DNA of 64,000 nt from a virus (IMGVR_UViG_3300035670_010691:32001-96000), one strand, 5' to 3'; shown: positions 11,560 to 56,032, counted from the first letter of the stretch. Notes: a model not told the origin generated them from the letters alone. Numbers and translations: made by a program.

Positions 11560-12501
11560 ATGAATAATTTTATTTTACTCTCTCATTGGAACGGAAGATT
11601 TGGAAATAGAATGCATCAATATGCTTATGGTGCTACTTATTCTAAATTAAATGATGTTGATTTTATATTAACATCTGATTGGGAAGGAACGTTTTTATTT
11701 AAACATCAATTTCACCGAGTTTGTGATAATGATGAAGTTCGTTTATACCGAAATCAAAGTGATAATCAATTTCATACTCTTGATATGCAAGAGATGATTT
11801 TAAAGAAAAATTATCCCGATATAAAATTTATTAATCCCGAAAACCCCGAAACAAATTACAAAAAAGTTGATAATCCTGTTTGGTTTGATTCAGTTTGTGC
11901 ATATAACAAATCTATTTTTGAAAAAATGTCAAAAGATTATTTATTGAGAGTTTTTAAATTTTCAGATTTGGTAAAAGAAACTGATGCTTATAAATATTGG
12001 TCTGAAAGACAGGGTACATATGATATTGCTCATTTAAGAAGAGACGATATTTCAAATCCCCAATATAACCAACAAAACGTTCAGGGATATTCCGTAGTTT
12101 CTCAACAATCATATTTTAATGCATTTAAAAAATATGGATATGACCCACAAAATATAATTTGGATTTCAGATGATCATATCAATAAATGGCATAAAGATAG
12201 AAAACCAACTCAATTTTTTGGATGGAGATACCCCGAGGGTTCTGTCTATAAAGATGGGTTTGTGTTTGATTGGTTGGAAGACTTTTTAAAACTTTATTTT
12301 GCACGAACTATTTTTAGAGCAAATTCATCGTTTAGTTGGTGGGCTTCATTTCTTTCTCCTACCGCAAAGGTTTTTTCTCCTGTATTGGATAAACAACTCA
12401 TTTATGGTAGAGATGGTATAGAAGAAGAAATTGAAGTTCAATTTGTAGAAGGAAACCATCCACATTGGTTATATGGAGTTGATGATATTGTTATAAAATG
12501 A
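11560..12501 (+). CDS. GT11 (alpha-1,2-fucosyltransferase)-like glycosyltransferase
   Basis: GRFGNRMHQYA, HLRRDD and NSSFSWWASFL motifs. Confidence 0.75.
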   Translation: MNNFILLSHWNGRFGNRMHQYAYGATYSKLNDVDFILTSDWEGTFLFKHQFHRVCDNDEVRLYRNQSDNQFHTLDMQEMILKKNYPDIKFINPENPETNYKKVDNPVWFDSVCAYNKSIFEKMSKDYLLRVFKFSDLVKETDAYKYWSERQGTYDIAHLRRDDISNPQYNQQNVQGYSVVSQQSYFNAFKKYGYDPQNIIWISDDHINKWHKDRKPTQFFGWRYPEGSVYKDGFVFDWLEDFLKLYFARTIFRANSSFSWWASFLSPTAKVFSPVLDKQLIYGRDGIEEEIEVQFVEGNHPHWLYGVDDIVIK

Positions 12502-13214
12502 AAATACATTTAGTTTGTTTTAATACAAAATCATGTTATGGTATAGTTGATTATTATCAAGAATCATTTCAAAAATTATCTTCTTCTTTTTTAAAAAACG
12601 GAGGAGATGAGATACATCATTTTGTTGAGGAAACTTTACCTTATAAAAGTGATTATGAAAAGTATTTTTTTGAAGATAATAAGGAATCTGCATTTGGATT
12701 TTATGCATTTAAACCTTTGATTATTTCTCATGTAATGGAAGAAATACCTTTTGGTGATGTTATACTTTATCACGATGTTGGTAGACCAGAATACAATTAC
12801 GAAATAAAAAAAGACATAAAAAAGACTGTTGATTTAGTAAAAAAAACTTATATGGGTATAGGGTTGGGTAGAGGCCCTTTTTCACATAACGAATACACAC
12901 GAAATGATTGTTTTGAACTTATGAATTGTGATTTTGAAGAATTAAGACATTCTAAGCAACTTGCTGCAAATTGGGGATTTTATGAAAAAAATCACATGGT
13001 TTTAGAATTTATTTCCAAATGGAAAGAGTGGTGTTTAAATTATGAAGTTGTTAGAAGTCATTATGAGTATGAAATTAATCACCAAGAATTTTCAGCTCAT
13101 AGATGGGATCAATCTATTTTAACCAATTTACATTTTTTATATAATTTGGAAACATTACCAAACTTAAAAGAATATAGTTGGGAAAAAGACATAAATAATT
13201 TTTTACATGAATGA
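12498..13214 (+). CDS. putative GT-A-like glycosyltransferase (HRxDQS family)
   Basis: FYAFKPLII, LYHDVG, HRWDQSILT; glyco-cluster context. Confidence 0.55.
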   Translation: MKIHLVCFNTKSCYGIVDYYQESFQKLSSSFLKNGGDEIHHFVEETLPYKSDYEKYFFEDNKESAFGFYAFKPLIISHVMEEIPFGDVILYHDVGRPEYNYEIKKDIKKTVDLVKKTYMGIGLGRGPFSHNEYTRNDCFELMNCDFEELRHSKQLAANWGFYEKNHMVLEFISKWKEWCLNYEVVRSHYEYEINHQEFSAHRWDQSILTNLHFLYNLETLPNLKEYSWEKDINNFLHE

Positions 13215-13870
13215 TAGTCGTTGCAAGTCATAATAATTTAGATACATTAGGTTGGATTGTAGAAGACTTATATAGAATAGATTTAAATAATCATGAAGTT
13301 TGTATTATTGATACAAATTCAAATAATTTGGAATTTAAAGAAAAATTTCATATATTAAGAAATGAGTATCCTTATTTTAAATTTATTAATTTAAATTATA
13401 CTTGTTGGGATAGTGGAGCTTATATTTGGGCATATAATAATCTAAAATCTGAACGGTATATATTTTTACAAGATTCGTTACGAATATTGGATAAAAATTA
13501 TATCAAGTTAATAGACCAAAATTTAGATTTATACGATGTTGTTGCTCATATAAATTTCAAATATCATTACGAAAATGAGGAACAAAAAAATTGGGTAGAA
13601 GACGGTATATTATTTAATGAATTACCCGAAGATGCAATATTCGGTCCTATTTTTGGTGTAAAAAAAACAACATTAGATAAGATACCTTCTTATTGGTTAA
13701 AACATCCGACAAATAAAAATGAAGGTTGTGGTATGGAAAGACGATGGAGTTTAATGTTTAATCAAATTGGAGCATCAAAGAAATATTTGGAAATTGAAGA
13801 TATTCCAAATGAGGTTACTATATATAATACAAGGAAGTATATACATAAATTATTTTATCACAGATTATGA
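13211..13870 (+). CDS. putative GT2-like glycosyltransferase
   Basis: VCIIDTNS, WDSGAY, YIFLQDS, GMERRW. Confidence 0.5.
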   Translation: MIVVASHNNLDTLGWIVEDLYRIDLNNHEVCIIDTNSNNLEFKEKFHILRNEYPYFKFINLNYTCWDSGAYIWAYNNLKSERYIFLQDSLRILDKNYIKLIDQNLDLYDVVAHINFKYHYENEEQKNWVEDGILFNELPEDAIFGPIFGVKKTTLDKIPSYWLKHPTNKNEGCGMERRWSLMFNQIGASKKYLEIEDIPNEVTIYNTRKYIHKLFYHRL

Positions 13871-14883
13871 AAATAGAAAATAAAAAATTGGCATTAGTTT
13901 TAGGTGGAGGTGGTTTCATAGGAGGTCATCTGGCAAAACGATTAAAAGAACAAGGATATTGGGTAAGGGTAGTTGATATTAAACCTAAGCACGAATATTA
14001 TGAATTAGATGAGTTTTGTCATGAATATATTGAAGGTGATTTGAGAGATTCAAGTTTAGTTTCCCGAATTATGTATTCACCAAATCAAAGAGCAGAGAAT
14101 GATAAAGAAAATTCATTTGATGAAGTTTATCAACTTGCTGCGGACATGGGAGGAGCTGGTTATATCTTTACAGGTGATAATGATGCAAATGTAATGCATA
14201 ATTCAGGTCTAATTAACTTTAATGTTGCATACGAAGCAAGTAAAAAAAGTGTAAAGAAAATTTTATACACTTCATCAGCTTGTATATACCCCGAACATAA
14301 TCAGTTAGACCCTGATAACCCGAAATGTGAAGAGTCATCTGCATATCCCGCAAACCCCGACTCCGAGTATGGTTGGGAAAAATTATTGAGTGAAAGATTG
14401 TATTTATCTTTTCACCGAAATTATGGATTAGATGTAAAGATTGCAAGACTACACAATATATTCGGTCCGTATGGAACGTGGGATGGTGGTAGAGAAAAAG
14501 CACCTGCGGCAATTTGTAGAAAAGTTATTCAAGCACCCGAAGGTGGTGAATTAGAAATTTGGGGTGATGGAAAACAAACCCGGTCTTTTCTTTATATAGA
14601 TGAGTGTTTAGACGGATTAAGAATTTTAATGGACTCAAATGAAAATCAACCTTTTAATATTGGTAGTGAAGAAATGATTTCCATAAACGAATTTACCAAA
14701 ATGATTATCGGTATAAGTGGAAAAAATTTAAGTATAAAAAATATACCAGGTCCAGAAGGAGTCAGGGGTAGAAATTCAGATAATAATTTAGTTTATTCCC
14801 TTTTAGGTTGGAAACCAACAATACCACTTAAAGATGGTATTACAAAAACATACCGATGGATTGAGACACAAGTAAATGAATAA
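13867..14883 (+). CDS. NAD-dependent epimerase, GDP-mannose 3',5'-epimerase-like
   Basis: GGGGFIG, LAADMGGAG, SSACIYP, YGWEK, EKAPAAICRK. Confidence 0.85.
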   Translation: MKIENKKLALVLGGGGFIGGHLAKRLKEQGYWVRVVDIKPKHEYYELDEFCHEYIEGDLRDSSLVSRIMYSPNQRAENDKENSFDEVYQLAADMGGAGYIFTGDNDANVMHNSGLINFNVAYEASKKSVKKILYTSSACIYPEHNQLDPDNPKCEESSAYPANPDSEYGWEKLLSERLYLSFHRNYGLDVKIARLHNIFGPYGTWDGGREKAPAAICRKVIQAPEGGELEIWGDGKQTRSFLYIDECLDGLRILMDSNENQPFNIGSEEMISINEFTKMIIGISGKNLSIKNIPGPEGVRGRNSDNNLVYSLLGWKPTIPLKDGITKTYRWIETQVNE

Positions 14884-15925
14884 AGAGTATTCACCAAAAA
14901 TATTAGTTACAACTGGTGCTGGAAACACAATTAAAGGTGGGGCCGATATTTGGACTAACCATTTTCTAAAATGGGTGTGGCCTACTTTACCTGATAAAAA
15001 AGAGTGGTTTTTACTTATAGACTCAAAAAGACCTGCTCAATTTGAAGAAAGATATTTACCAAAAGGACTTCGATACCACTTTCATGGTGATGATCCAGAA
15101 GTAACAAAAGATTGGTTGAATAGAGCTTCTGTTATACATTTTTTACATTCTCATTATCATAAAAGACCACACATTTGGCATTTTGAAGATAAGTTTGGAA
15201 CTATTTTTGTTCATGCATATCCAAGAGATATGATTTCGGTTATAGATAAAATACCAGAATTAAAATTATTACAATTTAATACAAAAGTAGATGCCGAGTG
15301 GTATGATGATTTTCTTCTTACATTTAATAGAAGAATTTGGATTGGATGTAATCCAAGTCAAATGTTTGATAATTTTCCAAATTATAGCTATAATGTTCCA
15401 AACTTTTATGAATTTCAACTTAATGCACCCCTAACAAATCATGTAAATAATGGAAAAGTTGGATACGCAGCAAGAATAGAAACTCGTAAGGCATTTCACT
15501 GGATGCACGGTGTTGAGGGATTGGCTTTGGTAGAACAAATGGATTTAGAAAATTTAAGAGCAACCACAACTTATACATTTCCTAAATTGGATGTTTATCA
15601 GTATCACCCCGATATTCATCAACATTTTATGAATAAAAATTGGGGTATATTTCATGGAGCTCATTTCCAAGAACCATTTGGATATAACATATTTCAAGCA
15701 GTAGATTATGGTAAATTACCAATAATAAATCATGATTGGTGCCCCGAAGTGGAATACAAATATAGAGCTTCAACTATGAATGATTTTCAAAGGATGATTA
15801 AACAAATTCTAAAAGATTCCCACCAAGAGAGAGAAGAAAATTGGTTGAGATTAAAACAATATATGAAACGATTTGATAATAGGGAAGAGTGGGTTGATAA
15901 AGTCAGAACTGCAATATTAGCATAA
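14876..15925 (+). CDS. GT-B fold (GT4-like) glycosyltransferase
   Basis: GGAD N-terminal motif, ARIETRK, EPFGYNIFQAVDYGKLPI. Confidence 0.7.
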   Translation: MNKEYSPKILVTTGAGNTIKGGADIWTNHFLKWVWPTLPDKKEWFLLIDSKRPAQFEERYLPKGLRYHFHGDDPEVTKDWLNRASVIHFLHSHYHKRPHIWHFEDKFGTIFVHAYPRDMISVIDKIPELKLLQFNTKVDAEWYDDFLLTFNRRIWIGCNPSQMFDNFPNYSYNVPNFYEFQLNAPLTNHVNNGKVGYAARIETRKAFHWMHGVEGLALVEQMDLENLRATTTYTFPKLDVYQYHPDIHQHFMNKNWGIFHGAHFQEPFGYNIFQAVDYGKLPIINHDWCPEVEYKYRASTMNDFQRMIKQILKDSHQEREENWLRLKQYMKRFDNREEWVDKVRTAILA

Positions 15926-15940
15926 TTTTGACTATGTATA

Positions 15941-15948
15941 TTTATATA
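15941..15948 (+). promoter_or_regulatory. putative phage promoter motif TATTTATA
   Basis: In the intergenic gap, 12 nt before ATG 15961; recurs in other gaps. Confidence 0.5.
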
Positions 15949-15960
15949 TAAACCTCTTGG

Positions 15961-16740
15961 ATGCCACTTTTAAATTTACAAAGAATATACGAGTTTATTA
16001 CTCATAATCATTCTTTTAAAAAGGATGTAAAGGGTAAAGAGTATAAAGAATTCCAACCTGTAAAGTATCGTTGGACTCATGGTGCAACGGATTATAATAT
16101 GGGTGACGGTCTTTTAGTATATTCCCTTATTCATCATTTACGGGCAAAAACTTGTGTCTGTCTTGGAAGTGGCGGTGGGTTCATTCCAAGAATAATGACC
16201 GAAGCTCGTTTGGATTTATACGATAGTAAAATATTTGAAGGAGAACGTCTAATAGAATGGGGGGATACTGGAACTACAATTCTTGTTGATGCAAATAATG
16301 GAGTTGGTGGTAATCCTGATTATCTTGATAAATCTTCTTTTTTTAGAGAATATTATCCAATTCGTTTAATAGTAGATACTACTGAAAACGCGTACTACAA
16401 CTTTTTTGTCAAAGAGGATATAAAGATAGATTATTTACATATAGATGCAGGTCACTCTTACGAAGATGTGAAACGAGATTTTGATTTATACACAAAACTC
16501 TTACAACCACACGGAATTGTTTCCATACACGATACAGATTCTTCATATGAAAACGAATATATTGTTACCGAAGATATAAAATCACAAGATTATCATCATG
16601 AATTTAACGGCCCTCAACAGTTGATAAGAGAATTAAAAGACAATCCCGAGTGGGAGATGTTTAATCTTTTCAATCACGGTATCAAAAGAGATAAACCATC
16701 AACAACAGGACTAACAATATTACAGAGATGCAAAAACTAA
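15961..16740 (+). CDS. class I SAM-dependent methyltransferase (Methyltransf_24-like)
   Basis: VCLGSGGG, IDYLHIDAGHSYE, GIVSIHD. Confidence 0.8.
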   Translation: MPLLNLQRIYEFITHNHSFKKDVKGKEYKEFQPVKYRWTHGATDYNMGDGLLVYSLIHHLRAKTCVCLGSGGGFIPRIMTEARLDLYDSKIFEGERLIEWGDTGTTILVDANNGVGGNPDYLDKSSFFREYYPIRLIVDTTENAYYNFFVKEDIKIDYLHIDAGHSYEDVKRDFDLYTKLLQPHGIVSIHDTDSSYENEYIVTEDIKSQDYHHEFNGPQQLIRELKDNPEWEMFNLFNHGIKRDKPSTTGLTILQRCKN

Positions 16741-17570
16741 ATTTAGTTACAGTTGTGGGTCATAACATTACTATGTTACCTCATATGATAAACCATTATA
16801 AAGATACGGTTGATGAGATATATGTTGTTGTTTATAAACAACACAATAATGATGGAATTGAAGAACAAGTCAGAGAATTGGGAATAAATCCTTATTTAGT
16901 AGTTACCGAACCAAAATTTAATTGGGAAAAGGTAACAGAATTATATAATCAAGTAAAACAAACCAAACCTGATGAATGGTGGATAGTGAGTGATGACGAT
17001 GAATTTCATGTTTATCCAAAACCAATCAGAGAAATGATAGAAGAATGTGAGGAAAATGGGTGGGATTTTATTACAGGTGGTTTTTTAGATAGAATAGGAC
17101 CTGATGGAACTTTTCCAGTTATTACTAATGAAAGTAATATATGGGAAGAATTTACAAACTGCGGATTTTTTAGAAATCCAATGAGTGGGGCTTGTCCAAA
17201 TAAAGTATGTGTAATGAAGGGTTCAGTTGATGTAACAGGGGGTCAGCACTATGTGTCTGTAGGTGATAGCGATACTTGGAGAGAAAGAGGATGGAACCAT
17301 CCAAAACGATATCCACCTAAAAAAGGATTTGTTCAAGTTCATCATTTTAAATGGGATAGTTCGGTTTTAAAAAGATTACAAGATGTCGCAAATACCAAAA
17401 CTGACTATTCATATTGGAAAGAATATAAAAAAATGTATAGAAATATTCAATTAAATAATTTTCGTATTGACATTAATAATAAAAATTATTATATTGTACC
17501 TATGTCTAAAAATACATATGATGAGTATCCATATTGGAAAATTATAACTCAAAAAATAATTGAAATATGA
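16728..17570 (+). CDS. GT2/GT92-like glycosyltransferase
   Basis: WWIVSDDDEF DxD motif, GGQH, VHHFKW. Confidence 0.7.
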   Translation: MQKLNLVTVVGHNITMLPHMINHYKDTVDEIYVVVYKQHNNDGIEEQVRELGINPYLVVTEPKFNWEKVTELYNQVKQTKPDEWWIVSDDDEFHVYPKPIREMIEECEENGWDFITGGFLDRIGPDGTFPVITNESNIWEEFTNCGFFRNPMSGACPNKVCVMKGSVDVTGGQHYVSVGDSDTWRERGWNHPKRYPPKKGFVQVHHFKWDSSVLKRLQDVANTKTDYSYWKEYKKMYRNIQLNNFRIDINNKNYYIVPMSKNTYDEYPYWKIITQKIIEI

Positions 17571-19030
17571 AAGATAAGTTAGCTATTATAGTTCCTTATC
17601 GAGATAGAGAAAAACACTTAAATGTGTTTGTACCTCATATTCACAATTTTCTAAAAGACAAGGGAATTGACTATGATATTTTTATCGTTGAGCAAGCAGA
17701 CGATAGGCCATTTAATTATGGTAAGTTGTGTAATGCTGCAGTAAAAGAAGTGGGTGAAGAATATACTTACTTTGCATTTCACGATATTGATATGTTACCT
17801 ATAAGTGATGAATGTGATTATGGTTATCCTGATGTTCCAACTCACTTGGCAACAAACGTAGAAGCACATGATAACAAACTTCCATATCCACAATATTTTG
17901 GTGGAGTGGTTTTAATTAATCGTGAAGATTTTGAAAGAGCAAATGGATATTCAAATGAGTATTGGGGATATGGATTCCAGGATATAGATTTACTTTATAG
18001 ATTACAAAGAAGTGGTGCTTATCTTGAAAAATTTTATGATAAAAATAAAACTTATTCAAACTATGATGAACTTGATATTTTACCGTATAGAATAGAAAAA
18101 GTTGAAATATCAAGAAATAAATTATCACAGAAATTTAAAACAAATATTTTTAATAAAGAAAGTTTTTTATATGGAACACTTAACCCATTAACAAAAAAAC
18201 TTGTAGATGAATCTTTCACAATTTCATTTTGGTTTAATGACAGATTTGAAAGAAGTATTAATAAAAATTTATTTTGTTTTGAAGGATATGACACTGGATT
18301 GTTTTTAAATAATGGTAATCAAATAATAGGACAAATTTGGAACAATAATAACCAACATAATCAAGTTATTTTAAATTATTCAAGAAATGTATGGAATTAT
18401 GTTTTGTTTGAATATGATAAAGAAAATAATGAAATTAATTTAACCCTAAACAATAAAACAGCAAAAGAAAAATTATCTGATAATTTCAAACTTTTTGATT
18501 ATAAAGACAAACATATAAAAATATCTGATAAAAATTCTGATATAGAATTATCTGAAATATTTGTTTTTGATACTATTTTGACTGATGATGCTAAAAAACA
18601 ATTTTATTTTGAAGGTAATTCTTGTCTTAATAAATTAAAAACTCAGCATGGGGTAAGTCCAGTTTTACATTTTAATTATACTAAAACCTATTCAAAAAAT
18701 ATTCTTTTAGATAATGGGTTATTTTTAAATCATATTACTATACAAGGAAATACCGAAACTAATGAAAAAAATATAGAACTTACAGATATTGTATATCTTC
18801 CATTTAGAATTCATGGAAAATATAAATCACTTTCACATGGTAATGATAGAAATATTATTAATAATTATTATACCTATAATCCTGATATAAGTGAAAATGC
18901 CGATATTTTTTTTCATGAAGTATTACAAAATAAATTAGATTTAAAAAGTATTGGGTTATTGAATATAAAATACAAATTGTTAGACAAAATTAAAAGAAAT
19001 GAGTATGAACTTATTAGAATTGTTACATAA
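17567..19030 (+). CDS. GT7 (beta-1,4-galactosyltransferase-like) with inserted LamG/ConA domain; degenerate catalytic motif
   Basis: VPYRDR, FNYGKLCN, FHDID, YFGGV, NGYSNEYWGYGFQDID. Confidence 0.8.
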   Translation: MKDKLAIIVPYRDREKHLNVFVPHIHNFLKDKGIDYDIFIVEQADDRPFNYGKLCNAAVKEVGEEYTYFAFHDIDMLPISDECDYGYPDVPTHLATNVEAHDNKLPYPQYFGGVVLINREDFERANGYSNEYWGYGFQDIDLLYRLQRSGAYLEKFYDKNKTYSNYDELDILPYRIEKVEISRNKLSQKFKTNIFNKESFLYGTLNPLTKKLVDESFTISFWFNDRFERSINKNLFCFEGYDTGLFLNNGNQIIGQIWNNNNQHNQVILNYSRNVWNYVLFEYDKENNEINLTLNNKTAKEKLSDNFKLFDYKDKHIKISDKNSDIELSEIFVFDTILTDDAKKQFYFEGNSCLNKLKTQHGVSPVLHFNYTKTYSKNILLDNGLFLNHITIQGNTETNEKNIELTDIVYLPFRIHGKYKSLSHGNDRNIINNYYTYNPDISENADIFFHEVLQNKLDLKSIGLLNIKYKLLDKIKRNEYELIRIVT

Positions 19031-21139: not shown

Positions 21140-22575
21140 AATTAGGAGTTTGTGTTCCATACAGAAATAGAGAAGCCCACTTAAAGGAATTCGTACCAAC
21201 AGTTGGTAAGTATTTAGAAAGTCAAGGAATTGATTACCAAATATATTTTGGCCATCAAGTTGATGATAAGTTGTTTAATCGTGGTGCAATGAAAAATGTT
21301 GCAGCAGAATGGGCGTTTAAAGAAGGATGTGATTACATTGTATGGCACGACATAGATATGATACCCGAAGAAGGGTGTGATTATTCTTTTCCTGAAAAAT
21401 ACCCCGTTCATATTGCCACTAACATTTCACAAATGAATTACCAATTGAAGTATGAAGAGTACTTTGGTGGTGCGGTCTTATTCTCAAAAGAACAAGTTGA
21501 GAAAACCAACGGGTATTCAAATGACTATTGGGATTGGGGTATGGAAGATGATGACCTTTTTTGGAGGTGTGTGTTAGAGGGATATGTTGATCAAAAATAT
21601 ATGAATTTTACCGATTTACCAAAAGATTATTTATCATTTGACGGGAAGGGTTCATTTGTCAGAATACCATGTACTCGTTCTATTCGTAATTTAACTTCAA
21701 GGTCTCACACAGTTTCCGTACTCGTTCGTGCTCATCAACAAGAGGAAAAAGTACCAATTTGGTTAGTTGGTGATACAGAAAGAAGATTTTGTGAATATCC
21801 TATTTTAAGGAGACCTGGATATGATTATGGTTTGAGTTATAATAATTCCCGTACCTATACATCTCAATTGTGGAATAATCAAAAAGACCATATCTATTCT
21901 TGGATGAAACGATATGAAAACCAATGGTCTTGGGTAACACTTGTTGTTGATGATAACAAAGTTCATTTTTATATGAATGGTAAAGAAAGTGATGCTCGTT
22001 GGGGAACAGGAACTCATTCACCCCAAGAGTTTGAAGGAATGTTAAAACGATATGGCAATGTTGATTACTATTTAGGAACAACAACTTCCGTTGCTGATAA
22101 TGATGTTTCAAAATGGTTTAAAGGTGATATAGCAGATGTTAAATTATATGACAGAGCACTTACCAAATCAGAAGTAGAAGATTTAGCATTATCACCAACA
22201 TCAGATGGGTTAGTTCTTCATTACAATTTTCAAAATGGAGAGGCGTATGATTTATCAGGTAACGAAAATGATGGTGAAGTTTTTGACTGTGAACATCACA
22301 GAGAAACTATACAAGTTCCATATACAACTCTTCCTCACCGAAGACCTGGTAGGTTAAGATGTCTTCCACATAAAGACGAAGGTTTAGTAGAAGAGGGCGG
22401 TGTTAAAAAATGGGCAAAAGGAGAAACCACCGCTCGTAATGAAAGAAGGTTCGTTCATCAAATGCAACAAGGTGAGTGGGATTACAAATCCGATGGAATT
22501 GCTCAATTAAAATATGAATTAGTGGATACCACTATAATTAATGATAGAGTAAAATTAATAAATGTAAAATTATGA
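21136..22575 (+). CDS. GT7 glycosyltransferase with inserted LamG/ConA domain
   Basis: VPYRNR, FNRGAMKN, WHDID, WDWGMEDDD; FKGDIADVKLYDRALT...DLSGNENDG. Confidence 0.85.
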   Translation: MKLGVCVPYRNREAHLKEFVPTVGKYLESQGIDYQIYFGHQVDDKLFNRGAMKNVAAEWAFKEGCDYIVWHDIDMIPEEGCDYSFPEKYPVHIATNISQMNYQLKYEEYFGGAVLFSKEQVEKTNGYSNDYWDWGMEDDDLFWRCVLEGYVDQKYMNFTDLPKDYLSFDGKGSFVRIPCTRSIRNLTSRSHTVSVLVRAHQQEEKVPIWLVGDTERRFCEYPILRRPGYDYGLSYNNSRTYTSQLWNNQKDHIYSWMKRYENQWSWVTLVVDDNKVHFYMNGKESDARWGTGTHSPQEFEGMLKRYGNVDYYLGTTTSVADNDVSKWFKGDIADVKLYDRALTKSEVEDLALSPTSDGLVLHYNFQNGEAYDLSGNENDGEVFDCEHHRETIQVPYTTLPHRRPGRLRCLPHKDEGLVEEGGVKKWAKGETTARNERRFVHQMQQGEWDYKSDGIAQLKYELVDTTIINDRVKLINVKL

Positions 22576-23993
22576 GTGAAGTAATTGGAAATAATTTCCA
22601 TAAAACAAAACAACAATTAGACTCAGTAGGATGTGGATTTTGTCTTGCAAAATGGACACAAGTTACGATGCATCTTCATAATGGAACTACCCATTCATGT
22701 CACCATCCTGCACCACATAAAATTGGACTTAAAGAAATTGAAAAAAATCACACAGCATTACATAATTCTAAACATAAGAAAAAAGTTAGAAAAGAAATGT
22801 TGGAGGGTGGTAGACCAGAAGAATGTAATTATTGTTGGAGAGTAGAAGATAGCTCAGAAGCTTATTCAGACCGAGTATTTAAATCAGAAGAACAATGGTC
22901 TAAACCTCACTTTGAAGAAATTAAAAATATTGATTGGAAAGAAGATTATTTACCAAAATATGTTGAGGTAAGTTTTGCAAACACTTGTAATTTTAAGTGT
23001 GCGTATTGTGGACCTGAATATTCATCAACTTGGGTAGAAGAAGTTAGAAATCATGGTGGATATCCAACGTCTCAAAATTTTAATTCATTAGACCCAATTG
23101 TAGAAAGAAATACACTTTCTATACCACAACGAGAACATAATCCATATATTGAGGCATTTTGGAAATGGTGGCCTCAGTTATACAAAAATATGGATACTTT
23201 TAGAATTACAGGTGGTGAGCCATTATTGTCAAAAGATACTTGGAAAGTATTAGATAATATTATTGAAACTGATGAACCAAATAAAAACTTAAAGTTTTCC
23301 ATTAATTCAAATTTAGGTGTGGATGATAAGTTGATTGAAAAACTTATTGAAAAACTTAAAATTATTGAAACCGAAGGTAGAGTAAAAGAAATGATTATTT
23401 ACACATCGGTTGATGCATATGGACAACAAGCTGACTATGTTAGATATGGTTTGGATTTTGAAAAACTTTTTAAAAATATTGATAGAATTTTATCGGAACT
23501 TCAAAAAGTAACAGTTGTTGTTATGTCAACATTTAATATTTTTAGTATTTTTTCTTATGAGAAATTGTTAAAAAAGGTATATGAATTTAAACTAAAACAT
23601 TTTAATACAGAGAGATATTGGAATTCTGCTTTAATTATAGATACTTCTTATTTAAGACATCCAGAATTTTTAAGTTTTAGATTATTAAAAGACTATTTAG
23701 ACGAAGAATACTTTGAAAGATGTATAAAATTCATGAAATTTCATTCTACTTATAGGTCTTTAAATTCGTTTCAACCTAAGCATATTTCAGATGTTGGATT
23801 TACTTTAAAAGAAATAGAAAAAGTATCAAGAATTAGAGATATTTTTGTTAAAGATAGTTTAATAGATGATACAAATTTTGATTTACAAAAGAAAGATTTT
23901 TTAAAATTTATAGAAGAGTATGAAGTAAGAAGACACTTAAAATGTCAAGATTATTTCCCTGAATTAACTAATTTCATAAATAATATAAAATGA
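22572..23993 (+). CDS. radical SAM protein with N-terminal twitch/SPASM-like domain
   Basis: CLAKW...SCHH...ECNYCW; CNFKCAYC; ITGGEP. Confidence 0.85.
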   Translation: MSEVIGNNFHKTKQQLDSVGCGFCLAKWTQVTMHLHNGTTHSCHHPAPHKIGLKEIEKNHTALHNSKHKKKVRKEMLEGGRPEECNYCWRVEDSSEAYSDRVFKSEEQWSKPHFEEIKNIDWKEDYLPKYVEVSFANTCNFKCAYCGPEYSSTWVEEVRNHGGYPTSQNFNSLDPIVERNTLSIPQREHNPYIEAFWKWWPQLYKNMDTFRITGGEPLLSKDTWKVLDNIIETDEPNKNLKFSINSNLGVDDKLIEKLIEKLKIIETEGRVKEMIIYTSVDAYGQQADYVRYGLDFEKLFKNIDRILSELQKVTVVVMSTFNIFSIFSYEKLLKKVYEFKLKHFNTERYWNSALIIDTSYLRHPEFLSFRLLKDYLDEEYFERCIKFMKFHSTYRSLNSFQPKHISDVGFTLKEIEKVSRIRDIFVKDSLIDDTNFDLQKKDFLKFIEEYEVRRHLKCQDYFPELTNFINNIK

Positions 23994-24736
23994 ATATATT
24001 ATATAAACAACCGTATTGGATAAAATATAAATGGGATTTGTCATATCACGATGATAATCAATATGTTACTCCATTCAATAAAGAACAAAACTTGGAATTA
24101 AATAATTGTTTTCATCAAAAAAAATGGACATTGAATGTATTTTTTAAATTAATACCAAATTCATTTACTGATAAAATATTTTGTATCATAGGAAAGCCGG
24201 GCAAAAATATGGGAATCACATTTAATACTGAAAGTGAATCTCTTGCTTTTGAATTTTGGACGAAGGTTCCAAAAAAAGATGACCAATTTAATTGGGTTGG
24301 ATTTTATGGAATTACTAAAAGTGATTTAGAAAATTTGGATTTAGTCCTTTCAGTTGTTAGAGAAAATAATAAAATATTACTTTATAAAAATTATGATTTA
24401 ATAAACGAACAGGAATTTGAAGGTGAATTAATAGACGATTATAAGGAAGAAGGTATTATAATCGGGGCAGGTAATCCTGGTACATTTGTTGAAGAACACA
24501 GATATTTTGGTCAATTTGATATTAAGCACTTATCGTTTATTAAAAACAAAACAGATATTAATTTTGCACTTGAGACATTTACAACACCAGTTGAAAAACT
24601 GTTGAACAAATCTCATTATAACGATATTCTTTTCTTATTTGATTTTAAACATAAAAATAATTTTAACATCATTTTAGATGAATCAAAAAACAATAACTTT
24701 ATGGAAAAACTTCCACTTGAATTTTTAACTAATTAA
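23990..24736 (+). CDS. stand-alone LamG/ConA-like protein
   Basis: Beta-rich; C-terminal LFDF...ILDESKNNN matches the ends of the LamG inserts. Confidence 0.5.
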   Translation: MNILYKQPYWIKYKWDLSYHDDNQYVTPFNKEQNLELNNCFHQKKWTLNVFFKLIPNSFTDKIFCIIGKPGKNMGITFNTESESLAFEFWTKVPKKDDQFNWVGFYGITKSDLENLDLVLSVVRENNKILLYKNYDLINEQEFEGELIDDYKEEGIIIGAGNPGTFVEEHRYFGQFDIKHLSFIKNKTDINFALETFTTPVEKLLNKSHYNDILFLFDFKHKNNFNIILDESKNNNFMEKLPLEFLTN

Positions 24737-24738
24737 TT

Positions 24739-26187
24739 ATGTCAGATACAAACGAATTACGAGATTGGCGAAACAAAAATCTTAACTCTATATCACCAAG
24801 CTTTTGTGCAGCTAAATGGTATAATGCTTCTTTACATTTGGGTCATGGATTTACCAACTCCTGTCACTTACCACTTCCCCATCCTGTTGATTTAGAGGAA
24901 ATTAAAACTAATCCGGGAGCACTTCATAATACGAAGTTAAAGAAAGAAGCACGTAAAATGATGTTGGATGGTAGAAGACCAGCTGAATGTTCTTATTGTT
25001 GGAAAGTGGAGGATATTGGTAGAGATCACATTGCAGATCGTGTTTATAAGTCACGTATTTACAAAGAAGAAGATATTTCTAAATTAAGAGATTTACCTTG
25101 GGATGTGGATGTGTTATTAAAAACAGTAGAGGTTTCATTCGATAGAACTTGTAATTTTGCTTGCTCATATTGCAATTCAGGTTATTCCACGACATGGGGT
25201 AAAGAAATCAAAAAATTTGGACCTTATCAAAAGTTTAAAACAGTATCCGCGGGCGCTTATTACGCTGACGGAAGTTGGGCTGATAAATTTGGAAAACAAA
25301 ATGATGATAATCCATATGTTCAAGCATTTATTAGATGGTGGCCAGATCTTGTAAAAGAATTAGAAGAAATTAGAATCACAGGTGGAGAACCAACCATGTC
25401 TCATAATTTTTGGAGTTTCTTGGATGTCGTTAAGAGATATCCATCCAACAAATTAAGACTTGCTGTTAATTCTAATTTAGGTGGTACTTTTGATAGAATA
25501 CAAAGACTAATTGACGCTACTCACGAATTACCAATTAAAGAATTTGATTTATATACGTCTAACGAATCTTTTGGTAAGCATGCCGAATATATTAGAGATG
25601 GTTTAATTTATCCCGAGTGGAGATCAAATATGGTTAAGTTTATTGAAAGAGCAGAATTTAGGTCACTAACCGTGATGATGACGATAAATTCTCTTTGTCT
25701 TTTCAGTATTACCGAATTTTTGGACGATATGATTACTCTAAAAGAAAAATATGGTCCAAACAGACCAAATGTCGATTTTAACATTTTAAGATGGCCAGCA
25801 TTCATGTCTCCACTCGTATTACCAAATTCTGTAAAAAATGACTTACACCGTAAGTTTAAAACTTGGTATGACGAAAGAAGAAAAAATGAATGGTTTGATG
25901 AATTGTTTTCAGTAGGTGAAAAGGCACAGATTGAAAGATTAATTGACTATATTGAAGTAGTTGAAACAGGTCACGTAACAACAGAAAGAGAAAATGAATT
26001 ACATTTTCATGACTTTAAATCATTTTATTCTCAATATGATGAAAGACGTGGTAAGAGTTTTGTTGAAACTTTTCCTGAATTAAAAGATTGGTATGAATCA
26101 ATTGAAGTTGATAAAACCATACCTGATGTTGAATTGAGAAGTGGTGAAATTACTCACTTTGAAGACGGTGAATATAATCCAAATTAA
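24739..26187 (+). CDS. radical SAM protein with N-terminal twitch/SPASM-like domain
   Basis: CAAKW...SCH...ECSYCW; CNFACSYC; ITGGEP; paralog of 22572..23993. Confidence 0.85.
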   Translation: MSDTNELRDWRNKNLNSISPSFCAAKWYNASLHLGHGFTNSCHLPLPHPVDLEEIKTNPGALHNTKLKKEARKMMLDGRRPAECSYCWKVEDIGRDHIADRVYKSRIYKEEDISKLRDLPWDVDVLLKTVEVSFDRTCNFACSYCNSGYSTTWGKEIKKFGPYQKFKTVSAGAYYADGSWADKFGKQNDDNPYVQAFIRWWPDLVKELEEIRITGGEPTMSHNFWSFLDVVKRYPSNKLRLAVNSNLGGTFDRIQRLIDATHELPIKEFDLYTSNESFGKHAEYIRDGLIYPEWRSNMVKFIERAEFRSLTVMMTINSLCLFSITEFLDDMITLKEKYGPNRPNVDFNILRWPAFMSPLVLPNSVKNDLHRKFKTWYDERRKNEWFDELFSVGEKAQIERLIDYIEVVETGHVTTERENELHFHDFKSFYSQYDERRGKSFVETFPELKDWYESIEVDKTIPDVELRSGEITHFEDGEYNPN

Positions 26188-26190
26188 ATC

Positions 26191-31956: not shown

Positions 31957-31960
31957 AAAC

Positions 31961-44606: not shown

Positions 44607-45186
44607 AAATAGAAAAAGTTTGTTTTACAAAGAAAGAAAATGGAATGATTTTCATTATTATAATGGAACTGTTCTTCCTGATTTAAAAATAATTCAACCC
44701 TCAGTGTATTATGAATATAGAGGTGAAATATCAACTACTTATCATTCTGAATATTATGATAGATTGTTACCTGTTTCAGAAAGAAACGAGGGGTTGTCGT
44801 TTAAGCATGACAGATATTCAAAATCTAAAATAGGAGTTCTTCGTGGTCTTCATTATGATGATAAAACTTGGAAATTAATAAGTTGTCTTCATGGTAAAAT
44901 ATACTTGGTGGTATTAGATGTAAGACCAAAATCCACCACATACGGAAAGTGGGAGTCATTTATCATTTCACCTCATACTCAAACACAAGTATTAGTTCCA
45001 CCAAACTTTGCAAACGGTCATTTTATTATGGAAGATGATTCTATTTTCTTTTATAAATTGGCGTACCAAGGTGAGTATAATGATGAAACAAAACAAAAGA
45101 CCATATTATTTAATGACAGAAGATTTAATATAGACTGGCCAGTTCAAAATCCAATATTATCACAAAGAGACAAAAATGGAAATTAA
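44599..45186 (+). CDS. rmlC: RmlC-like NDP-4-keto-6-deoxysugar 3,5-epimerase
   Basis: GVLRGLHY, KLISC..G.I..VVLDVR, IDWP....ILS.RD. Confidence 0.8.
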   Translation: MIENRKSLFYKERKWNDFHYYNGTVLPDLKIIQPSVYYEYRGEISTTYHSEYYDRLLPVSERNEGLSFKHDRYSKSKIGVLRGLHYDDKTWKLISCLHGKIYLVVLDVRPKSTTYGKWESFIISPHTQTQVLVPPNFANGHFIMEDDSIFFYKLAYQGEYNDETKQKTILFNDRRFNIDWPVQNPILSQRDKNGN

Positions 45187-45814
45187 AAATTTAGAACATT
45201 ATCCAAACCGATGGGAAGGTTCATCTCTCACCATAGATGATTTAATAAAATTTGAAGACGATGTAGTCCAAAAATGGGAAAGTGGAAAGATACGAGGTCC
45301 AGTTCACTTATCAAATGGAAACGAAGAACAACTTATCCAAATCTTTAAAAAAATCGGTATAAACGATTGGGTATTTTCTACTTGGAGGTCTCATTATCAC
45401 GCTCTCCTTCATGGTATTGATAAGAGAGAATTGATGGATATGATAACCGAGGGTAGATCAATCACAATAGTGGATAAAAAATCAAAGTTTTATTCATCAG
45501 CTATTGTCACGGGAACTCTTCCAATAGCACTTGGAGTTGCACAATCAATCAAATTAAGTGGTGATGATGAAAAGGTATGGGTATTTGTTGGTGATATGGC
45601 GTTTGAAAGTGGTATATTTTACGAAGTTCACAAATACGCAAGAAACTATGATTTACCAATTCACTTTATAGTAGAAGATAACGGTGTCTCTACTAACACC
45701 CCAACGTTAGAAACTTGGAATGGAATACAAAGAGAAATACCCGAAGATGTAATCTATTACAAATATAAATCAAAATATCCACACTATGGGACGGGAAAAT
45801 GGGTAGTATTTTAA
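45176..45814 (+). CDS. ThDP-dependent enzyme, E1-alpha-like (PP-binding) subunit
   Basis: GPVHLSNGNE, STWRSHYH, GDMA...EDN ThDP/Mg motif. Confidence 0.8.
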   Translation: MEIKNLEHYPNRWEGSSLTIDDLIKFEDDVVQKWESGKIRGPVHLSNGNEEQLIQIFKKIGINDWVFSTWRSHYHALLHGIDKRELMDMITEGRSITIVDKKSKFYSSAIVTGTLPIALGVAQSIKLSGDDEKVWVFVGDMAFESGIFYEVHKYARNYDLPIHFIVEDNGVSTNTPTLETWNGIQREIPEDVIYYKYKSKYPHYGTGKWVVF

Positions 45815-47606: not shown

Positions 47607-48832
47607 AAAAATTATTGTATATTGAATTTTCTCACAATTCTTTATTTATCATACATTTTTTTAAACATTATTTTGAAGAAATAAATAATGATGTGGAAAC
47701 TTGGCATCCATTAAAACCTGCCGATCGTTCACAAATTCAAAAAATGACATTTTCATTTTATTTTGAAGGGGATGAGGTTGATATATGGGTAAAGGATTTA
47801 TCTTATTTAAAATCAAATTATTCATTTATTTCAAAAAACTATGATAAAGTAATTTTAATTTCACAACGTTTTTTTCTTGACAAAAATATTAAATTTTTTG
47901 AACATTTTTCAATTCCAAAATCTGTTAAAAAAGTTTATTTAAATATTGAAGAATCTTTTCAAATAAAATACGACCAAAAAGAATTTGATGAACATTCTGT
48001 AAAATTTATTTCCAATTCTTTAAATAAAGAAAATATTAATTACATTTCTAATGATGATTCAAAGGATTTTAGTTATGAGGTATTTAAAGAAAAAATATTA
48101 TTAATACCATTTTTGTCGTTTTATCATTTTTGGTATTTTCATGCTTTGTCATTTTTTGATTTTAGTTGTATTCAAAACAAAAAGGAAAATTTATTTGGAG
48201 TATATTACACAGAGGGATACAAATCACAACGAGATGATATTTTTTCACATATAAAAACTAATATTGATAAAAATAATTTGTTAAATAATTTTAAAATATA
48301 TCACTCAACTATACCATCTAATATCGTTGATAAAATGTATTCATACCATTTTAATGTTTGGGAACGAAATCATATCACTGGTTTTTCCGATTATCAAAGA
48401 AGTATTGTAAATTTTGTATTTGAAAGTGAAATATTATCAAATATTGATAATATATTTTTTACCGAAAAAGTATTAAAGGCGTTATTATTTTCAAATCAAA
48501 ATATAATTTTTATACCTGTAATGTCAATAGGCAACTACATAAAATTAAAAGAAATGGGTTATTGGTTTTTAAATTTTGACTTTTTCGATTTTGAAAATGT
48601 TGATAAAGATAATGTTGATAATAACCTTAAAATAATGATAAATTCAGTCACCAAGTCAATTGATTACATTTCTAATTTATATAAAGAACATGGTGAAAAT
48701 TTGGAAAATTTAAATAATTACTTAAAAGAAGTTTATGGTGAAAAAATGAAAAGAAATTATGAACTAATTATTAATGAATTTAAAAATTCAATAGAAACTG
48801 AAAAGATAGTAAATTTTATATTAAAAGACTAA
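47603..48832 (+). CDS. divergent GT10-like 'TEK' family protein
   Basis: SIVNFVFES...FFTEKVLKAL. Confidence 0.45.
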   Translation: MKKLLYIEFSHNSLFIIHFFKHYFEEINNDVETWHPLKPADRSQIQKMTFSFYFEGDEVDIWVKDLSYLKSNYSFISKNYDKVILISQRFFLDKNIKFFEHFSIPKSVKKVYLNIEESFQIKYDQKEFDEHSVKFISNSLNKENINYISNDDSKDFSYEVFKEKILLIPFLSFYHFWYFHALSFFDFSCIQNKKENLFGVYYTEGYKSQRDDIFSHIKTNIDKNNLLNNFKIYHSTIPSNIVDKMYSYHFNVWERNHITGFSDYQRSIVNFVFESEILSNIDNIFFTEKVLKALLFSNQNIIFIPVMSIGNYIKLKEMGYWFLNFDFFDFENVDKDNVDNNLKIMINSVTKSIDYISNLYKEHGENLENLNNYLKEVYGEKMKRNYELIINEFKNSIETEKIVNFILKD

Positions 48833-48834
48833 AT

Positions 48835-49380
48835 ATGACAAAACCAGAATTCACACCTTATGTAGATGCACTAACTCACTCCATGAAACTTTGTATGGAT
48901 GATCCAACCACGGTATTCATCGGACAACAAATTCGGTGGTATGGAAATCCTATGTCTAAAACTATAGAAGGTCTTCCAAAAGAAAGAATGATAGAAACAC
49001 CGGTAATGGAAGAAACACAGATGGGAATGTCTATGGGTTTGGCCATGAGAGGACATACCGTAGTAACTTTTTATCCTCGTTGGGATTTTCTCATTCTTGC
49101 GGCAAATCAATTAGTAAATCATCTTGACAAGTTAGATGCAATGTCTGATGGGCAATGGAAACCAAAAGTAATAATTAGAGTTGGTAAAGGTAGTGACAAA
49201 CCACTTGATCCAGGTCATCAACACAAAGCTGATTATTCAGATGCATTTAATCAAATACTAAAATATATTCCTATAGTAAAATTAGATAGTTATAATAAAA
49301 TAATTCCAGCATATGAAGATGCACTTCAACGAAATGGTTCTACTATATTGGTGGAATATCCTGAGTTATATTATGTTTAA
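48835..49380 (+). CDS. ThDP-dependent enzyme, E1-beta/transketolase pyrimidine-binding subunit
   Basis: VFIGQ, ETPVMEETQMGMSMGLA, DFLILAANQLVN, GHQH. Confidence 0.8.
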   Translation: MTKPEFTPYVDALTHSMKLCMDDPTTVFIGQQIRWYGNPMSKTIEGLPKERMIETPVMEETQMGMSMGLAMRGHTVVTFYPRWDFLILAANQLVNHLDKLDAMSDGQWKPKVIIRVGKGSDKPLDPGHQHKADYSDAFNQILKYIPIVKLDSYNKIIPAYEDALQRNGSTILVEYPELYYV

Positions 49381-54493: not shown

Positions 54494-54494
54494 T

Positions 54495-55316: not shown

Positions 55317-55319
55317 TTA

Positions 55320-55327: not shown

Positions 55328-55353
55328 TTAAAATAACCACCTAATGTGTAAAA

Positions 55354-56028: not shown

Positions 56029-56032
56029 TTAT

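Follow-up and report, generated by a model that had tools for sequence, protein, structure and literature searches.

Directly behind the gene for a giant tail fibre, a T4-like phage carries an island of 40 open reading frames (ORFs) that we read as a phage-autonomous, cytoplasmic glycan factory. Its product would be borne by a phage-made protein, probably the fibre and perhaps other virion proteins, a tentative assignment to which we give close to an even chance. All in silico tests run fit cytoplasmic glycosylation of a putative phage-made acceptor. The island combines divergent NDP-sugar enzymes, ~13–14 glycosyltransferase-like proteins and tailoring enzymes, and contains a conserved core, newly recognised here, of a GT4-like transferase, a methyltransferase, a GT2, three GT7-LamG proteins, an 81-aa protein and N-terminal-twitch (N-twitch) radical SAM proteins. 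Positions are those of the window, the whole 64,000-nucleotide stretch of DNA analysed, and all features lie on the + strand. The source is an uncultured aquatic phage.

Layout and gene content of the island

In the ORF map of the window, 40 co-oriented ORFs occupy positions 11560–49380. Among their 39 junctions, 33 overlap, one abuts and four leave gaps of 2–4 nt, bearing out an earlier claim, made from the sequence alone, of about 40 tightly coupled genes. The sole larger gap (35 nt, 15926–15960) contains a copy of the motif ATATTTATA. The claimed location between tail and head genes also holds, with a 3,337-aa fibre (1523..11536) upstream and a polyprotein, terminase and portal downstream. 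The polyprotein (49553..54493; 1,646 aa, with cytidylyltransferase-like, HD and Ros/MucR modules) marks the downstream boundary and is conserved ahead of the terminase in 55 loci. The large terminase (57563) and portal (60898; context 57563..62613) were recognised by phrog_2 and phrog_213. TerL is 55% identical to that of Flavobacterium phage immuto, and TerL and the major capsid protein (MCP) are nearest to those of immuto, Mel-JY01 and RM378, with ~30–33% identity to cyanomyophages.

The sequence-only reading had named GMD-, Fcl-, RmlC-, UGD- and RfaE-like donor-synthesis genes, which we confirm at family level only, all NCBIfam scores being under the curated cut-offs. An Fcl-like SDR epimerase/reductase (13867..14883) scores 135 bits against PF01370 and 106 bits, under the cut-off, against the GDP-L-fucose synthase model; two more Fcl-like SDRs lie at 35763 and 37734. 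Further family-level matches are a GMD-like NDP-hexose 4,6-dehydratase (39344), a nucleotide-sugar dehydrogenase (31961), an RfaE domain I-like kinase (43845) and an RmlC-like protein (44599). A split PDH-E1-like TPP enzyme is encoded by an alpha-like (45176) and a beta-like (48835) gene, and an SDR is fused to a transferase-like (GT10-like) domain in a 723-aa protein (29785). The tailoring enzymes are equally in place: a Methyltransf_24 methyltransferase, a short DegT aminotransferase (27333), a GDSL/SGNH protein (34409) and a strongly matching StrB1-type amidinotransferase (28805; PDB 1BWD, E = 1.4e-99, full length), an accessory gene with homologues in only 3 of 80 related loci. Elsewhere in the genome, a NodU-like carbamoyltransferase gene precedes the baseplate block and a Sulfotransfer_2 gene lies downstream of a motif copy. 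Unknown ORFs start at 27991, 38695, 42712 and 43114, and at 45799 and 46707, the last two paralogous to each other.

The putative glycosyltransferases range from firm profile matches to leads. A GT-B protein of GT4-like type (14876..15925) is assigned by its predicted structure (AF2 pLDDT 89.7), for which Foldseek returned PimA (1.3e-10), BshA and GtfC; viral GT1-type proteins were matched in addition. The adjacent GT2-type transferase (16728–17570) matches PF13704 above the cut-off (32.3 bits). Three beta4GalT-like paralogues with an inserted LamG domain (17567, 19691 and 21136; PF13733, PF02709 and PF13385) exceed the Pfam cut-offs for Glyco_transf_7N (61–82 bits) and 7C (63–70 bits) and have the motifs HDxDM, YFGG and WGxG[F/M]EDDD and a post-insert His, with QDID in copy a. 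By profile and motifs they belong to CAZy GT7, their activity being predicted.

A GT10-like GT-B protein (33105) has two paralogues (40360 and 41522; 32–33% identical to it) and part-length paralogues within 29785 and 36728; none of these proteins has a Pfam GT10 match. Their alignment contains an invariant TE...EK within a consensus block ..HITEKS.., which may correspond to a YxTEK-like nucleotide-sugar motif. VIA-align matched the model (AF2 pLDDT 67) to FUT9 (Z 10.1), FUT11 (Z 10.0) and H. pylori FucT (Z 9.7), scores level with those of other GT-B chains. Leads only are an O-FucT/FUT8-like protein (26191; E = 0.007–0.009), a DUF5672 protein (35032) and a possible GT-B protein (47603). At the island's start, three contig-unique ORFs (11560..13870), with homologues absent from 163 related loci, comprise a putative glycosyltransferase (11560; 313 aa, phrog_2644, E = 2.9e-4), a 238-aa ORF with no glycosyltransferase lead and a 219-aa ORF (13211) with a GT2 lead below the cut-off (Glycos_transf_2, E = 0.008). 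Two GT25 paralogues (54453 and 56033; span 54453..56884), also unique to this contig, lie beyond the island's end and flank a conserved 224-aa gene (55354). The figure of at least 15 transferases proposed from the sequence is thus roughly right only if these two outside genes and the weak calls are counted; the island itself holds ~13–14, and the GT11-like type named in that reading is not among the calls made here.

The conserved core and the tail fibre

The GT4-like 14876, whose counterpart is the first gene behind the fibre in many relatives, has homologues in 48 of 80 related loci. The methyltransferase (15961–16740; PF13578, 44.6 bits) and the GT2 follow, present in 75/80 loci, and GT7-LamG is found in all 80. 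Amid the GT7 paralogues lie a 169-aa core ORF (18999) and a conserved 81-aa helical protein (19489–19734; 68/80 loci) with a variable acidic, Ser/Thr-containing tail. Two N-twitch radical SAM paralogues (22572 and 24739; span 22572..26187), 33% identical and separated by an unknown 248-aa ORF (23990), score 316.8 and 294.5 bits against NF033640 (curated cut-off 170). This family occurs in 75/80 loci, with up to 6–7 copies in L006 and L010.

Outside the core, gene content differs greatly from one related phage to the next: the 163 related loci lack any counterpart of at least eight genes, and others are found in 1–27 loci, leaving only the core in common. A complete relative of 289 kb, G002, has an island of 18 genes against the 40 here. 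In the ESM-Atlas, the 30 clusters nearest to the GT7-LamG protein all belong to Uroviricota. A search of one genome per species across 185,579 species gave two matches, both on metagenome-assembled contigs with the same phage cassette, and none of 50,697 GenBank phage records, P-SSM2 included, holds a homologue. The GT7-LamG type and the conserved core hence look phage-restricted; this, with conservation in 75–80 of 80 loci for methyltransferase, GT2, GT7 and radical SAM, supports a virion protein as the target.

The fibre ends in an S74 intramolecular chaperone domain (PF13884, 54.2 bits, residues 3226–3286) and has no PHROG match; its N-terminal 170 aa and S74 end are conserved among the core-adjacent fibres of relatives. 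In 49 of the 53 loci with sufficient upstream sequence, the core is preceded, at a distance of no more than 4.5 kb, by the end of a large Ser/Thr-rich frame; the smallest gap is 13–16 nt. Forty-three of these 49 frames are homologous to this fibre, and the fibre-then-core order is also kept in G002. Such linkage favours glycosylation of the virion, although the adjacency may be inherited T4-type synteny and not functional. Against the fibre as acceptor, homologues of several island genes also form a second cluster in G002, at 249–272 kb, distant from any fibre. The same locus in island-less relatives is a plastic region holding unrelated genes, which argues against a virion target. The Ser/Thr richness stressed in the sequence-only reading is real (26% Ser+Thr throughout the fibre) but generic, since the tailspike of the island-less phage immuto reaches 28%; no dedicated acceptor tract was found, nor any acceptor site or signature of an initiating protein-O-transferase.

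Within the 108.9-kb contig, each of the 12 + strand copies of ATATTTATA falls between genes, upstream of a start. One (1494..1502) lies 21 nt upstream of the fibre start, another (15938..15946) lies in the island's only sizeable gap, ahead of the conserved core, and one-mismatch copies lie at 11537–11546 and 49525. The motif precedes fibre, core, baseplate and head genes, and in G002 37 of 48 + strand copies are intergenic, against 4 on the other strand, again in keeping with a virion target. It is not confined to virion genes: in G002 its enrichment in the structural block is only ~1.5-fold, and copies also stand before non-structural genes, one of them 130 nt ahead of SSB. Sharing of the motif, a real feature, therefore does not establish late timing, and four copies that end 3–4 nt short of an ATG weaken its reading as a late promoter.

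Possible acceptors of the glycan

No recognisable export or priming machinery occurs in the island, in 80 related loci or in the complete G002. Not one of the 40 island proteins reaches a Kyte–Doolittle value of 1.6 in any 19-residue window, our threshold for a TM-like segment, and no Pfam match in the island indicates a priming phosphoglycosyl transferase, flippase/ABC permease, polymerase or ligase, upholding the claim that the proteins look soluble. Around the cores in the 80 related contigs, none of 1,373 ORFs has four or more TM-like segments. G002 encodes one 5-TM-like protein; its family is conserved in phages, and the relatives listed for it carry no Pfam domain of Wzx, Wzy or transporter type. 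The missing export route supports a virion acceptor, less strongly than first proposed, because lipid A-core (LOS-type) or ABC-transporter routes could use host proteins.

From the observed gene content and layout, we infer each step of the following course. The variable part of the island would make unusual NDP-sugars; candidates are 6-deoxyhexoses (4,6-dehydratase, Fcl-like and RmlC-like enzymes), uronic acids, heptose, amino or guanidino sugars (DegT and StrB1-like amidinotransferase) and two-carbon-branched sugars (split E1-like TPP enzyme). The core GT4-like, GT2 and three GT7 enzymes would begin and lengthen the chain on a folded or folding protein, the LamG insert keeping the GT7 enzyme on a polymer already glycosylated. 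The methyltransferase, N-twitch radical SAMs and SGNH protein, plus carbamoyl- and sulfotransferases encoded elsewhere, would edit the glycan, which would differ by strain because accessory genes turn over. The sugar-tailoring genes amid the virion modules (NodU-like, Sulfotransfer_2 and GT25 by the terminase) and the precedents of mycobacteriophage virion glycosylation and giant-virus autonomous glycosylation support this course. The cytoplasmic, lipid-independent glycosylation of virion proteins first put forward thus retains its basis in the lack of export machinery, the phage-restricted core, the placement behind the fibre and the shared motif, while three of its supports are weaker.

The main rival, host-envelope remodelling, we consider possible though rather unlikely. 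Soluble transferases working at the cytoplasmic membrane face would add sugars to host lipid A-core or to undecaprenyl-linked chains, host MsbA, ABC transporters or Wzx would export the product, and the altered surface would block adsorption of other phages or of released progeny. This is the published reading of analogous pelagimyophage and cyanomyophage islands (PMC7029224) and of the 24 'LPS genes' of P-SSM2 (PMC1079782), and GT25, RfaE-like, UGD-like, RmlC-like and GMD-like families are typical of LPS, LOS and O-antigen loci. Core-oligosaccharide transferases are themselves soluble or peripheral, so that the absence of TM proteins is compatible with this route. Against it, the ~40 genes and the 1,373 ORFs of relatives include no initiating phosphoglycosyl transferase, ligase, flippase or polymerase, and the core looks phage-restricted, not host-derived, sits in the fibre operon and has its motif in common with virion genes. 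Late surface conversion would, moreover, be of little benefit to a strictly lytic T4-like phage.

An improbable alternative is a product outside the virion: a glycoside that is free or a small molecule, such as a guanidino compound resembling aminoglycosides, or else a glycosylated non-structural phage or host protein. The 81-aa core protein with its Ser/Thr-containing acidic tail is a candidate acceptor, and the StrB1-type amidinotransferase by DegT and twitch radical SAMs is reminiscent of aminocyclitol pathways. The amidinotransferase is accessory (3/80 loci), however, genes for resistance or efflux are absent, as is any evident RiPP-type precursor, and at least 12 or so transferases with LamG-bearing GT7 suggest a polymeric acceptor.

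DNA hypermodification, with sugars on modified bases of the phage genome for restriction evasion, is very improbable: T-even phages do glucosylate hmC with GT-B enzymes, viral DNA glycans are described as diverse (Pyle 2024, as cited in PMC12619734; PMC13326640), the 14876 model resembles T4 alpha- and beta-glucosyltransferases too, as would any GT-B fold, and tblastn with six 7-deazaguanine genes of immuto (DpdA, QueC–F and FolE) found nothing in G002 at E ≤ 1e-6, but ~40 genes with branched, heptose and uronic sugars and lectin-bearing transferases go far beyond any known DNA glycan, and the island lies in the virion region, away from nucleotide metabolism genes. The only thymidylate-synthase (TS) homologue in the contig, which is 45% complete, has the canonical dUMP-type Asn (PFN) and PCH of ThyA and is therefore not a dCMP hydroxymethylase; in G002 the TS family gives two matches, one of them strong and the other below threshold.

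Comparison with known systems

Similar hypervariable islands are on record from other marine T4-like phages, where they have been interpreted as serving to modify the host surface (PMC7029224, PMC1079782). The host recognition cluster (HRC) of pelagimyophages and cyanomyophages, averaging 44.6 kb in pelagimyophages, lies within the structural region and combines tail fibres with numerous glycosyltransferases, genes of rfaE and UDP-glucose-dehydrogenase type, and radical SAM cassettes; GT8 is its commonest family, and host O-chain modification was proposed (Zaragoza-Solas et al. 2020, PMC7029224). Our island resembles it as a variable region adjoining a fibre, with glycosyltransferases, LPS-type sugar genes, radical SAMs and gene content that turns over between relatives. 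It differs in position (fibre to polyprotein/terminase, as against VrlC–gp14), in its immuto/RM378-like capsid and terminase, neither pelagimyophage nor cyanomyophage, and in a GT4-like/methyltransferase/GT2/GT7-LamG/N-twitch radical SAM core absent from the HRC description in that paper. In P-SSM2 the 24 'LPS genes' form clusters (Sullivan et al. 2005, PMC1079782) that are smaller than the present island, which moreover directly adjoins its fibre gene and has GT7-LamG. Unlike Wzx/Wzy- or ABC-dependent O-antigen and capsule loci, it lacks the hallmark multi-pass membrane proteins, and although 28805 aligns with StrB1 inosamine-phosphate amidinotransferase (PDB 1BWD) over its full length, it is surrounded by the genes of a phage glycan island and not by those of a streptomycin cluster.

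Moraphages, aquatic jumbo phages of up to 307 kb with predicted Bacteroidota hosts, are reported as outside T4 groups and have four glycosyltransferases among their core orthogroups, target undecided (Perez-Hernandez et al. 2025, PMC12619734). Unlike them, the complete relative G002 is without HSP70 and glutamine synthetase. The mycobacteriophage system reportedly has few genes, draws its donors from the host and modifies capsid and tail-tube subunits at their C-terminal tails. In contrast, ~40 genes here include their own donor synthesis, and no such C-terminal tails were identified. Both have phage-encoded soluble transferases by structural genes, and those of mycobacteriophages, as presented in the citing paper, act on virion proteins while these are in the cytoplasm (Freeman et al. 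2023, Cell Host Microbe, as cited in PMC12619734).

Our island is also larger than the glycosylation clusters of chloroviruses and mimiviruses, eukaryotic giant viruses in which these clusters have roughly 6–12 genes. Their autonomous glycosylation relies on clade-specific gene clusters with donor synthesis, soluble transferases and a methyltransferase, and proceeds independently of ER and lipid on capsid or fibrils (Piacente et al. 2015, PMC4691112). Sequence kinship with them is limited to shared superfamilies; the likeness lies in virus-encoded donor synthesis, soluble transferases and a methyltransferase, as predicted for the phage.

Organization and enzyme content of the island

The sequence-only reading had described about 40 tightly coupled genes, and the layout agrees: 40 ORFs pack positions 11560–49380, with 39 junctions comprising 33 overlaps, one abutting pair, four gaps of 2–4 nt and a single gap of 35 nt. 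Its placement of the island between tail and head genes holds on the upstream side, where the fibre gene lies; directly downstream is a gene for a 1646-aa multidomain polyprotein (49553), not head genes proper. Beyond the polyprotein come two GT25 genes with a conserved gene between them, then terminase and portal. The two GT25 paralogues (within 54453–56884; 37% identical) are inserted on either side of the conserved 224-aa pre-terminase gene, and neither has a homologue among 163 related loci.

Annotation drew on Pfam, NCBIfam and PDB sequence searches, internal BLAST and two AlphaFold models. Donor-synthesis genes proposed earlier keep their ‘-like’ assignments, and we take the naming no further because all score under NCBI curated cut-offs. 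Where at least 15 transferases had been estimated, we count about 13–14 transferase-like proteins in the island, several of which are weak assignments, plus the two GT25 proteins just downstream. Profile searches with two alignments (A1 and A2) against PDB sequences returned nothing, so fold models were used instead. Searching the PDB with phmmer gave nothing useful for ORFs 11560, 45799 and 26191 or for the radical SAM protein, and PHROGs assigned no function to the fibre or to six unknown proteins.

The strongest single assignment in the island, judged by sequence match, is ORF 28805–29818, a predicted StrB1-type (streptomycin pathway) amidinotransferase that matches PDB 1BWD over its full length (E = 1.4e-99). 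It adjoins genes for a short DegT aminotransferase and twitch radical SAM proteins, a neighbourhood that suggests a guanidino sugar or cyclitol. Of 80 related loci, 3 have a homologue of the amidinotransferase, and another lies at 249.7 kb in G002, a complete relative that carries the island. A PDH-E1-like TPP enzyme is split into alpha (45176–45814, 212 aa) and beta (48835–49380, 181 aa) genes with three genes between them, and may generate a two-carbon branched sugar.

The conserved core and its distribution

Related loci were collected using one GT7 paralogue as query, which retrieved 89 viral contigs, and by a terminase search, which found at least 600 relatives at ≥80% identity in IMG/VR, marking an abundant clade. 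Scoring all window proteins against related loci by tblastn revealed a core of fixed order: a GT4-like gene (14876), Methyltransf_24, GT2, GT7-LamG a, (a 169-aa ORF), an 81-aa protein, GT7-LamG b, GT7-LamG c and N-twitch radical SAM paralogues (one to seven). Core members are present in 68–80 of 80 loci, and the GT4-like gene in 48. The remaining genes vary, with an RmlC-like and E1-alpha-like pair found in 21–27 loci and at least eight island genes found in none. G002 keeps the gene order of the window phage with an island of 18 genes; in the cultured relatives immuto and Mel-JY01 the locus is occupied by small, unrelated genes.

The three GT7 paralogues retain HDxDM, YFGG, WGxG[F/M]EDDD and a His following the LamG insert, except that in copy a (17567–19030) QDID replaces the EDDD of the beta4GalT catalytic loop. 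The LamG match of this copy is also weak (19 bits), and it may be diverged or regulatory. The 81-aa helical protein within the core (19489–19734; also L028:1788–2261 and L034:9551–9996) has invariant residues including E49, K55 and R64-P65 in a conserved RPxRDSER-type block, followed by a variable, acidic tail with Ser/Thr; its gene is tandemly duplicated in some relatives. N-twitch radical SAM genes number six to seven tandem paralogues in the related loci L010 (1611–8067 and 14947–15759) and L006 (8782–16919), compared with two in the window.

GT7-LamG has no homologue at E ≤ 1e-5 in 50,697 GenBank phage records. A scan of one genome from each of 185,579 prokaryotic species, which detects close relatives only, gave just two matches, both MAG contigs bearing the same core cassette: VHCC01000006.1 (L169) in a Pelagibacterales bin and CAYPEJ010000017.1 (L170) in an ‘Anaeromicropila’ bin. 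Mis-binning of phage contigs into cellular MAGs probably explains both. In the ESM-Atlas, all 30 of the 30 nearest clusters are Uroviricota with an identical three-domain architecture. The core radical SAM proteins fall in NF033640, and metagenomes yield over 7,000 clusters of them at 90% identity; their only cultured-phage homologue is in the Ralstonia jumbo phage RsoM2USA, which we rejected as a core carrier since it has only the radical SAM gene in common. A literature search on N-twitch radical SAM function returned only RiPP and BtrN-type precedents.

Phage lineage and the shared upstream motif

The window spans bases 32001–96000 of an IMG/VR viral contig of 108,914 bp, rated 45% complete by CheckV, with a GC content of ~0.29 and all genes but one on the + strand. 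The sole − strand ORF of ≥80 aa outside + strand ORFs (1042–1440) lies between an SbcC-like gene and the fibre promoter region. The phage has a T4-type terminase and portal, with 55% (TerL) and 52–56% (major capsid protein) identity to Flavobacterium phage immuto, Microcystis phage Mel-JY01 and an uncultured 484-kb phage. Next-nearest by these proteins is Rhodothermus phage RM378, and cyanomyophages reach only ~30–33%. G002, rated 100% complete at 288,673 bp and bearing direct terminal repeats, has a TerL 81% identical to that of the window phage and shows that the clade extends to jumbo size; the absence of HSP70 and glutamine synthetase from it argues against identity with the moraphages, jumbo phages described previously (PMC12619734). 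Both the cultured relatives and an absence of Shine-Dalgarno-like sequences point to a Bacteroidota host. No tRNA or Rfam family was found in the window, and megablast of 10 kb of the island found no match among GenBank phages.

On the + strand, the contig has 12 copies of the motif ATATTTATA, every one (12/12) upstream of a start and in the intergenic 3.3% of the sequence. Eleven copies begin 12–50 nt upstream, leaving 3–41 nt between motif end and ATG, and four end 3–4 nt before the ATG; the remaining copy immediately precedes a 60-aa ORF, the next ATG ORF being 408 nt away. By contrast, all five − strand copies fall within ORFs. Genes with a + strand copy upstream are those of the baseplate region, two giant structural genes, the fibre gene, the island core (15961) and head genes; copies with one mismatch lie upstream of the first island gene and the polyprotein. 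On the contig, none precedes primase, DenV, SbcC, ThyA or the carbamoyltransferase.

In G002 the motif has 48 copies on the + strand, 37 of them intergenic, versus four on the − strand. It precedes the orthologous fibre, GT4-like and polyprotein genes and, with a copy of its own, the 81-aa gene. A 101-kb structural block holds 20 of the 37 intergenic copies, and one copy lies 130 nt before SSB. The sharing of a promoter-like motif between island and virion genes proposed from sequence thus stands for fibre, core, baseplate and head; the G002 mapping rules the motif out as a marker of virion genes only. Its placement argues that it is a real regulatory signal common to both gene sets, with a putative role as a late promoter. 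The T4 late promoter TATAAATA was rejected as a candidate, its 10 + strand copies, all inside ORFs save the site at 1464, being at chance level against nine on the − strand. A sigma-70 scan found 78 sites where 76 were expected.

The target of the sugars

The gene upstream of the island (1523–11536) encodes 3337 aa, with 26% Ser+Thr and a C-terminal S74 chaperone domain; this domain, the size and the position make it a tail fibre, one that PHROGs does not recognize. We discarded Ser/Thr richness as evidence of glycosylation, since the immuto tailspike reaches 28% without an island. Upstream sequence of at least 4.5 kb is available for 53 loci; in 49 a large Ser/Thr-rich frame ends within 4.5 kb of the core, and in 43 of those the frame is homologous to the window fibre. 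The distance from fibre stop to first core gene is 13–16 nt in several loci.

Tailoring genes also lie elsewhere. Outside the window, the contig encodes a cytidylyltransferase-like protein, a full-length carbamoyltransferase of the NodU/CmcH type whose gene immediately precedes the baseplate block (contig 5576–7288; L171:5576–7288) and, behind a copy of ATATTTATA, a 191-aa Sulfotransfer_2 protein with a GTG start and a PKTAGTT motif (contig 27148–27723; L172:7148–7723), the latter two upstream of the window. Directly after the sulfotransferase gene comes one for a SegE-like GIY-YIG endonuclease. G002 has a second sugar cluster (C1:249686–272439) with homologues of the amidinotransferase, RfaE-like kinase, short DegT protein and ORF 42712, all of whose equivalents sit within the single island of the window phage; sugar genes are therefore not always beside the fibre.

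The island proteins look soluble, as suggested, none having a 19-residue window with a mean Kyte-Doolittle value of ≥1.6. Around the core in 80 loci, 1373 non-overlapping ORFs include none with four or more TM-like segments and a single 69-aa ORF with two. The whole G002 genome encodes two proteins with five or six such segments (398 aa and 801 aa), both distant from the island and neither matching the PDB; the smaller one is a member of a large conserved phage family, with no flippase, polymerase or transporter Pfam among the relatives listed.

The best reading, which we hold tentatively, is that the island would glycosylate a phage protein autonomously in the cytoplasm, the fibre being the most probable acceptor. 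It fits the clade-wide lack of export and priming genes, the conserved and apparently phage-restricted core, the operon-like fibre link, the lectin-bearing transferases and the scattering of tailoring genes among virion modules. Confidence is limited by conserved synteny, by the generic fibre composition and by the non-exclusive motif. The main rival, which we consider less likely, is that island enzymes would remodel lipid-linked host glycans for export by host machinery; this is the published view of the analogous host recognition cluster of pelagimyophages and cyanomyophages (PMC7029224) and of the P-SSM2 clusters (PMC1079782), and would mean large-scale surface conversion by lytic phages. 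Sugar-modified DNA is unlikely, with nothing in its support on a contig rated 45% complete; the contig thymidylate-synthase homologue has dUMP-type PFN and PCH motifs. A tblastn search of complete G002 found no homologue of DpdA, QueC–F or FolE, the 7-deazaguanine DNA-modification set of immuto (L194, 18607–36971).

If the virion is the target, marine phage particles would bear variable glycan coats, with bearing on host recognition, decoy binding, grazing and stickiness. Fibre sequence alone would then be insufficient for host-range prediction, and the island would offer new soluble glyco-enzymes (lectin-inserted GT7, glycan-editing radical SAM and StrB1-like amidinotransferase). It is conceivable, and we propose with greater reserve than cytoplasmic glycosylation itself, that a very abundant clade of uncultured aquatic T4-like/jumbo phages autonomously builds a complex, strain-variable heteroglycan on the giant tail fibre using phage-exclusive enzymes, namely GT7 proteins carrying a LamG lectin insert together with N-twitch radical SAM proteins. 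Such a glycan would be methylated, and it might in addition undergo sulfation, carbamoylation, guanidinylation and radical SAM editing.

The sugar-gene clusters of lytic marine T4-like phages have had no demonstrated function since 2005, and such a heteroglycan, if true, would explain the purpose of their ‘LPS genes’. Hypervariable sugar islands beside their tail fibres are already published (PMC7029224, PMC1079782), and virion glycosylation is established in giant viruses (PMC4691112) and, as cited in the moraphage paper (PMC12619734), in mycobacteriophages, so this island would be a further case of that kind. Unlike the published islands, it comes from a different, immuto-like lineage and is unusually large; new here is the conserved core, of which we found no description in the literature. 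A fibre heteroglycan, if real, would give bacterial viruses a counterpart to the fibril glycosylation of giant viruses.
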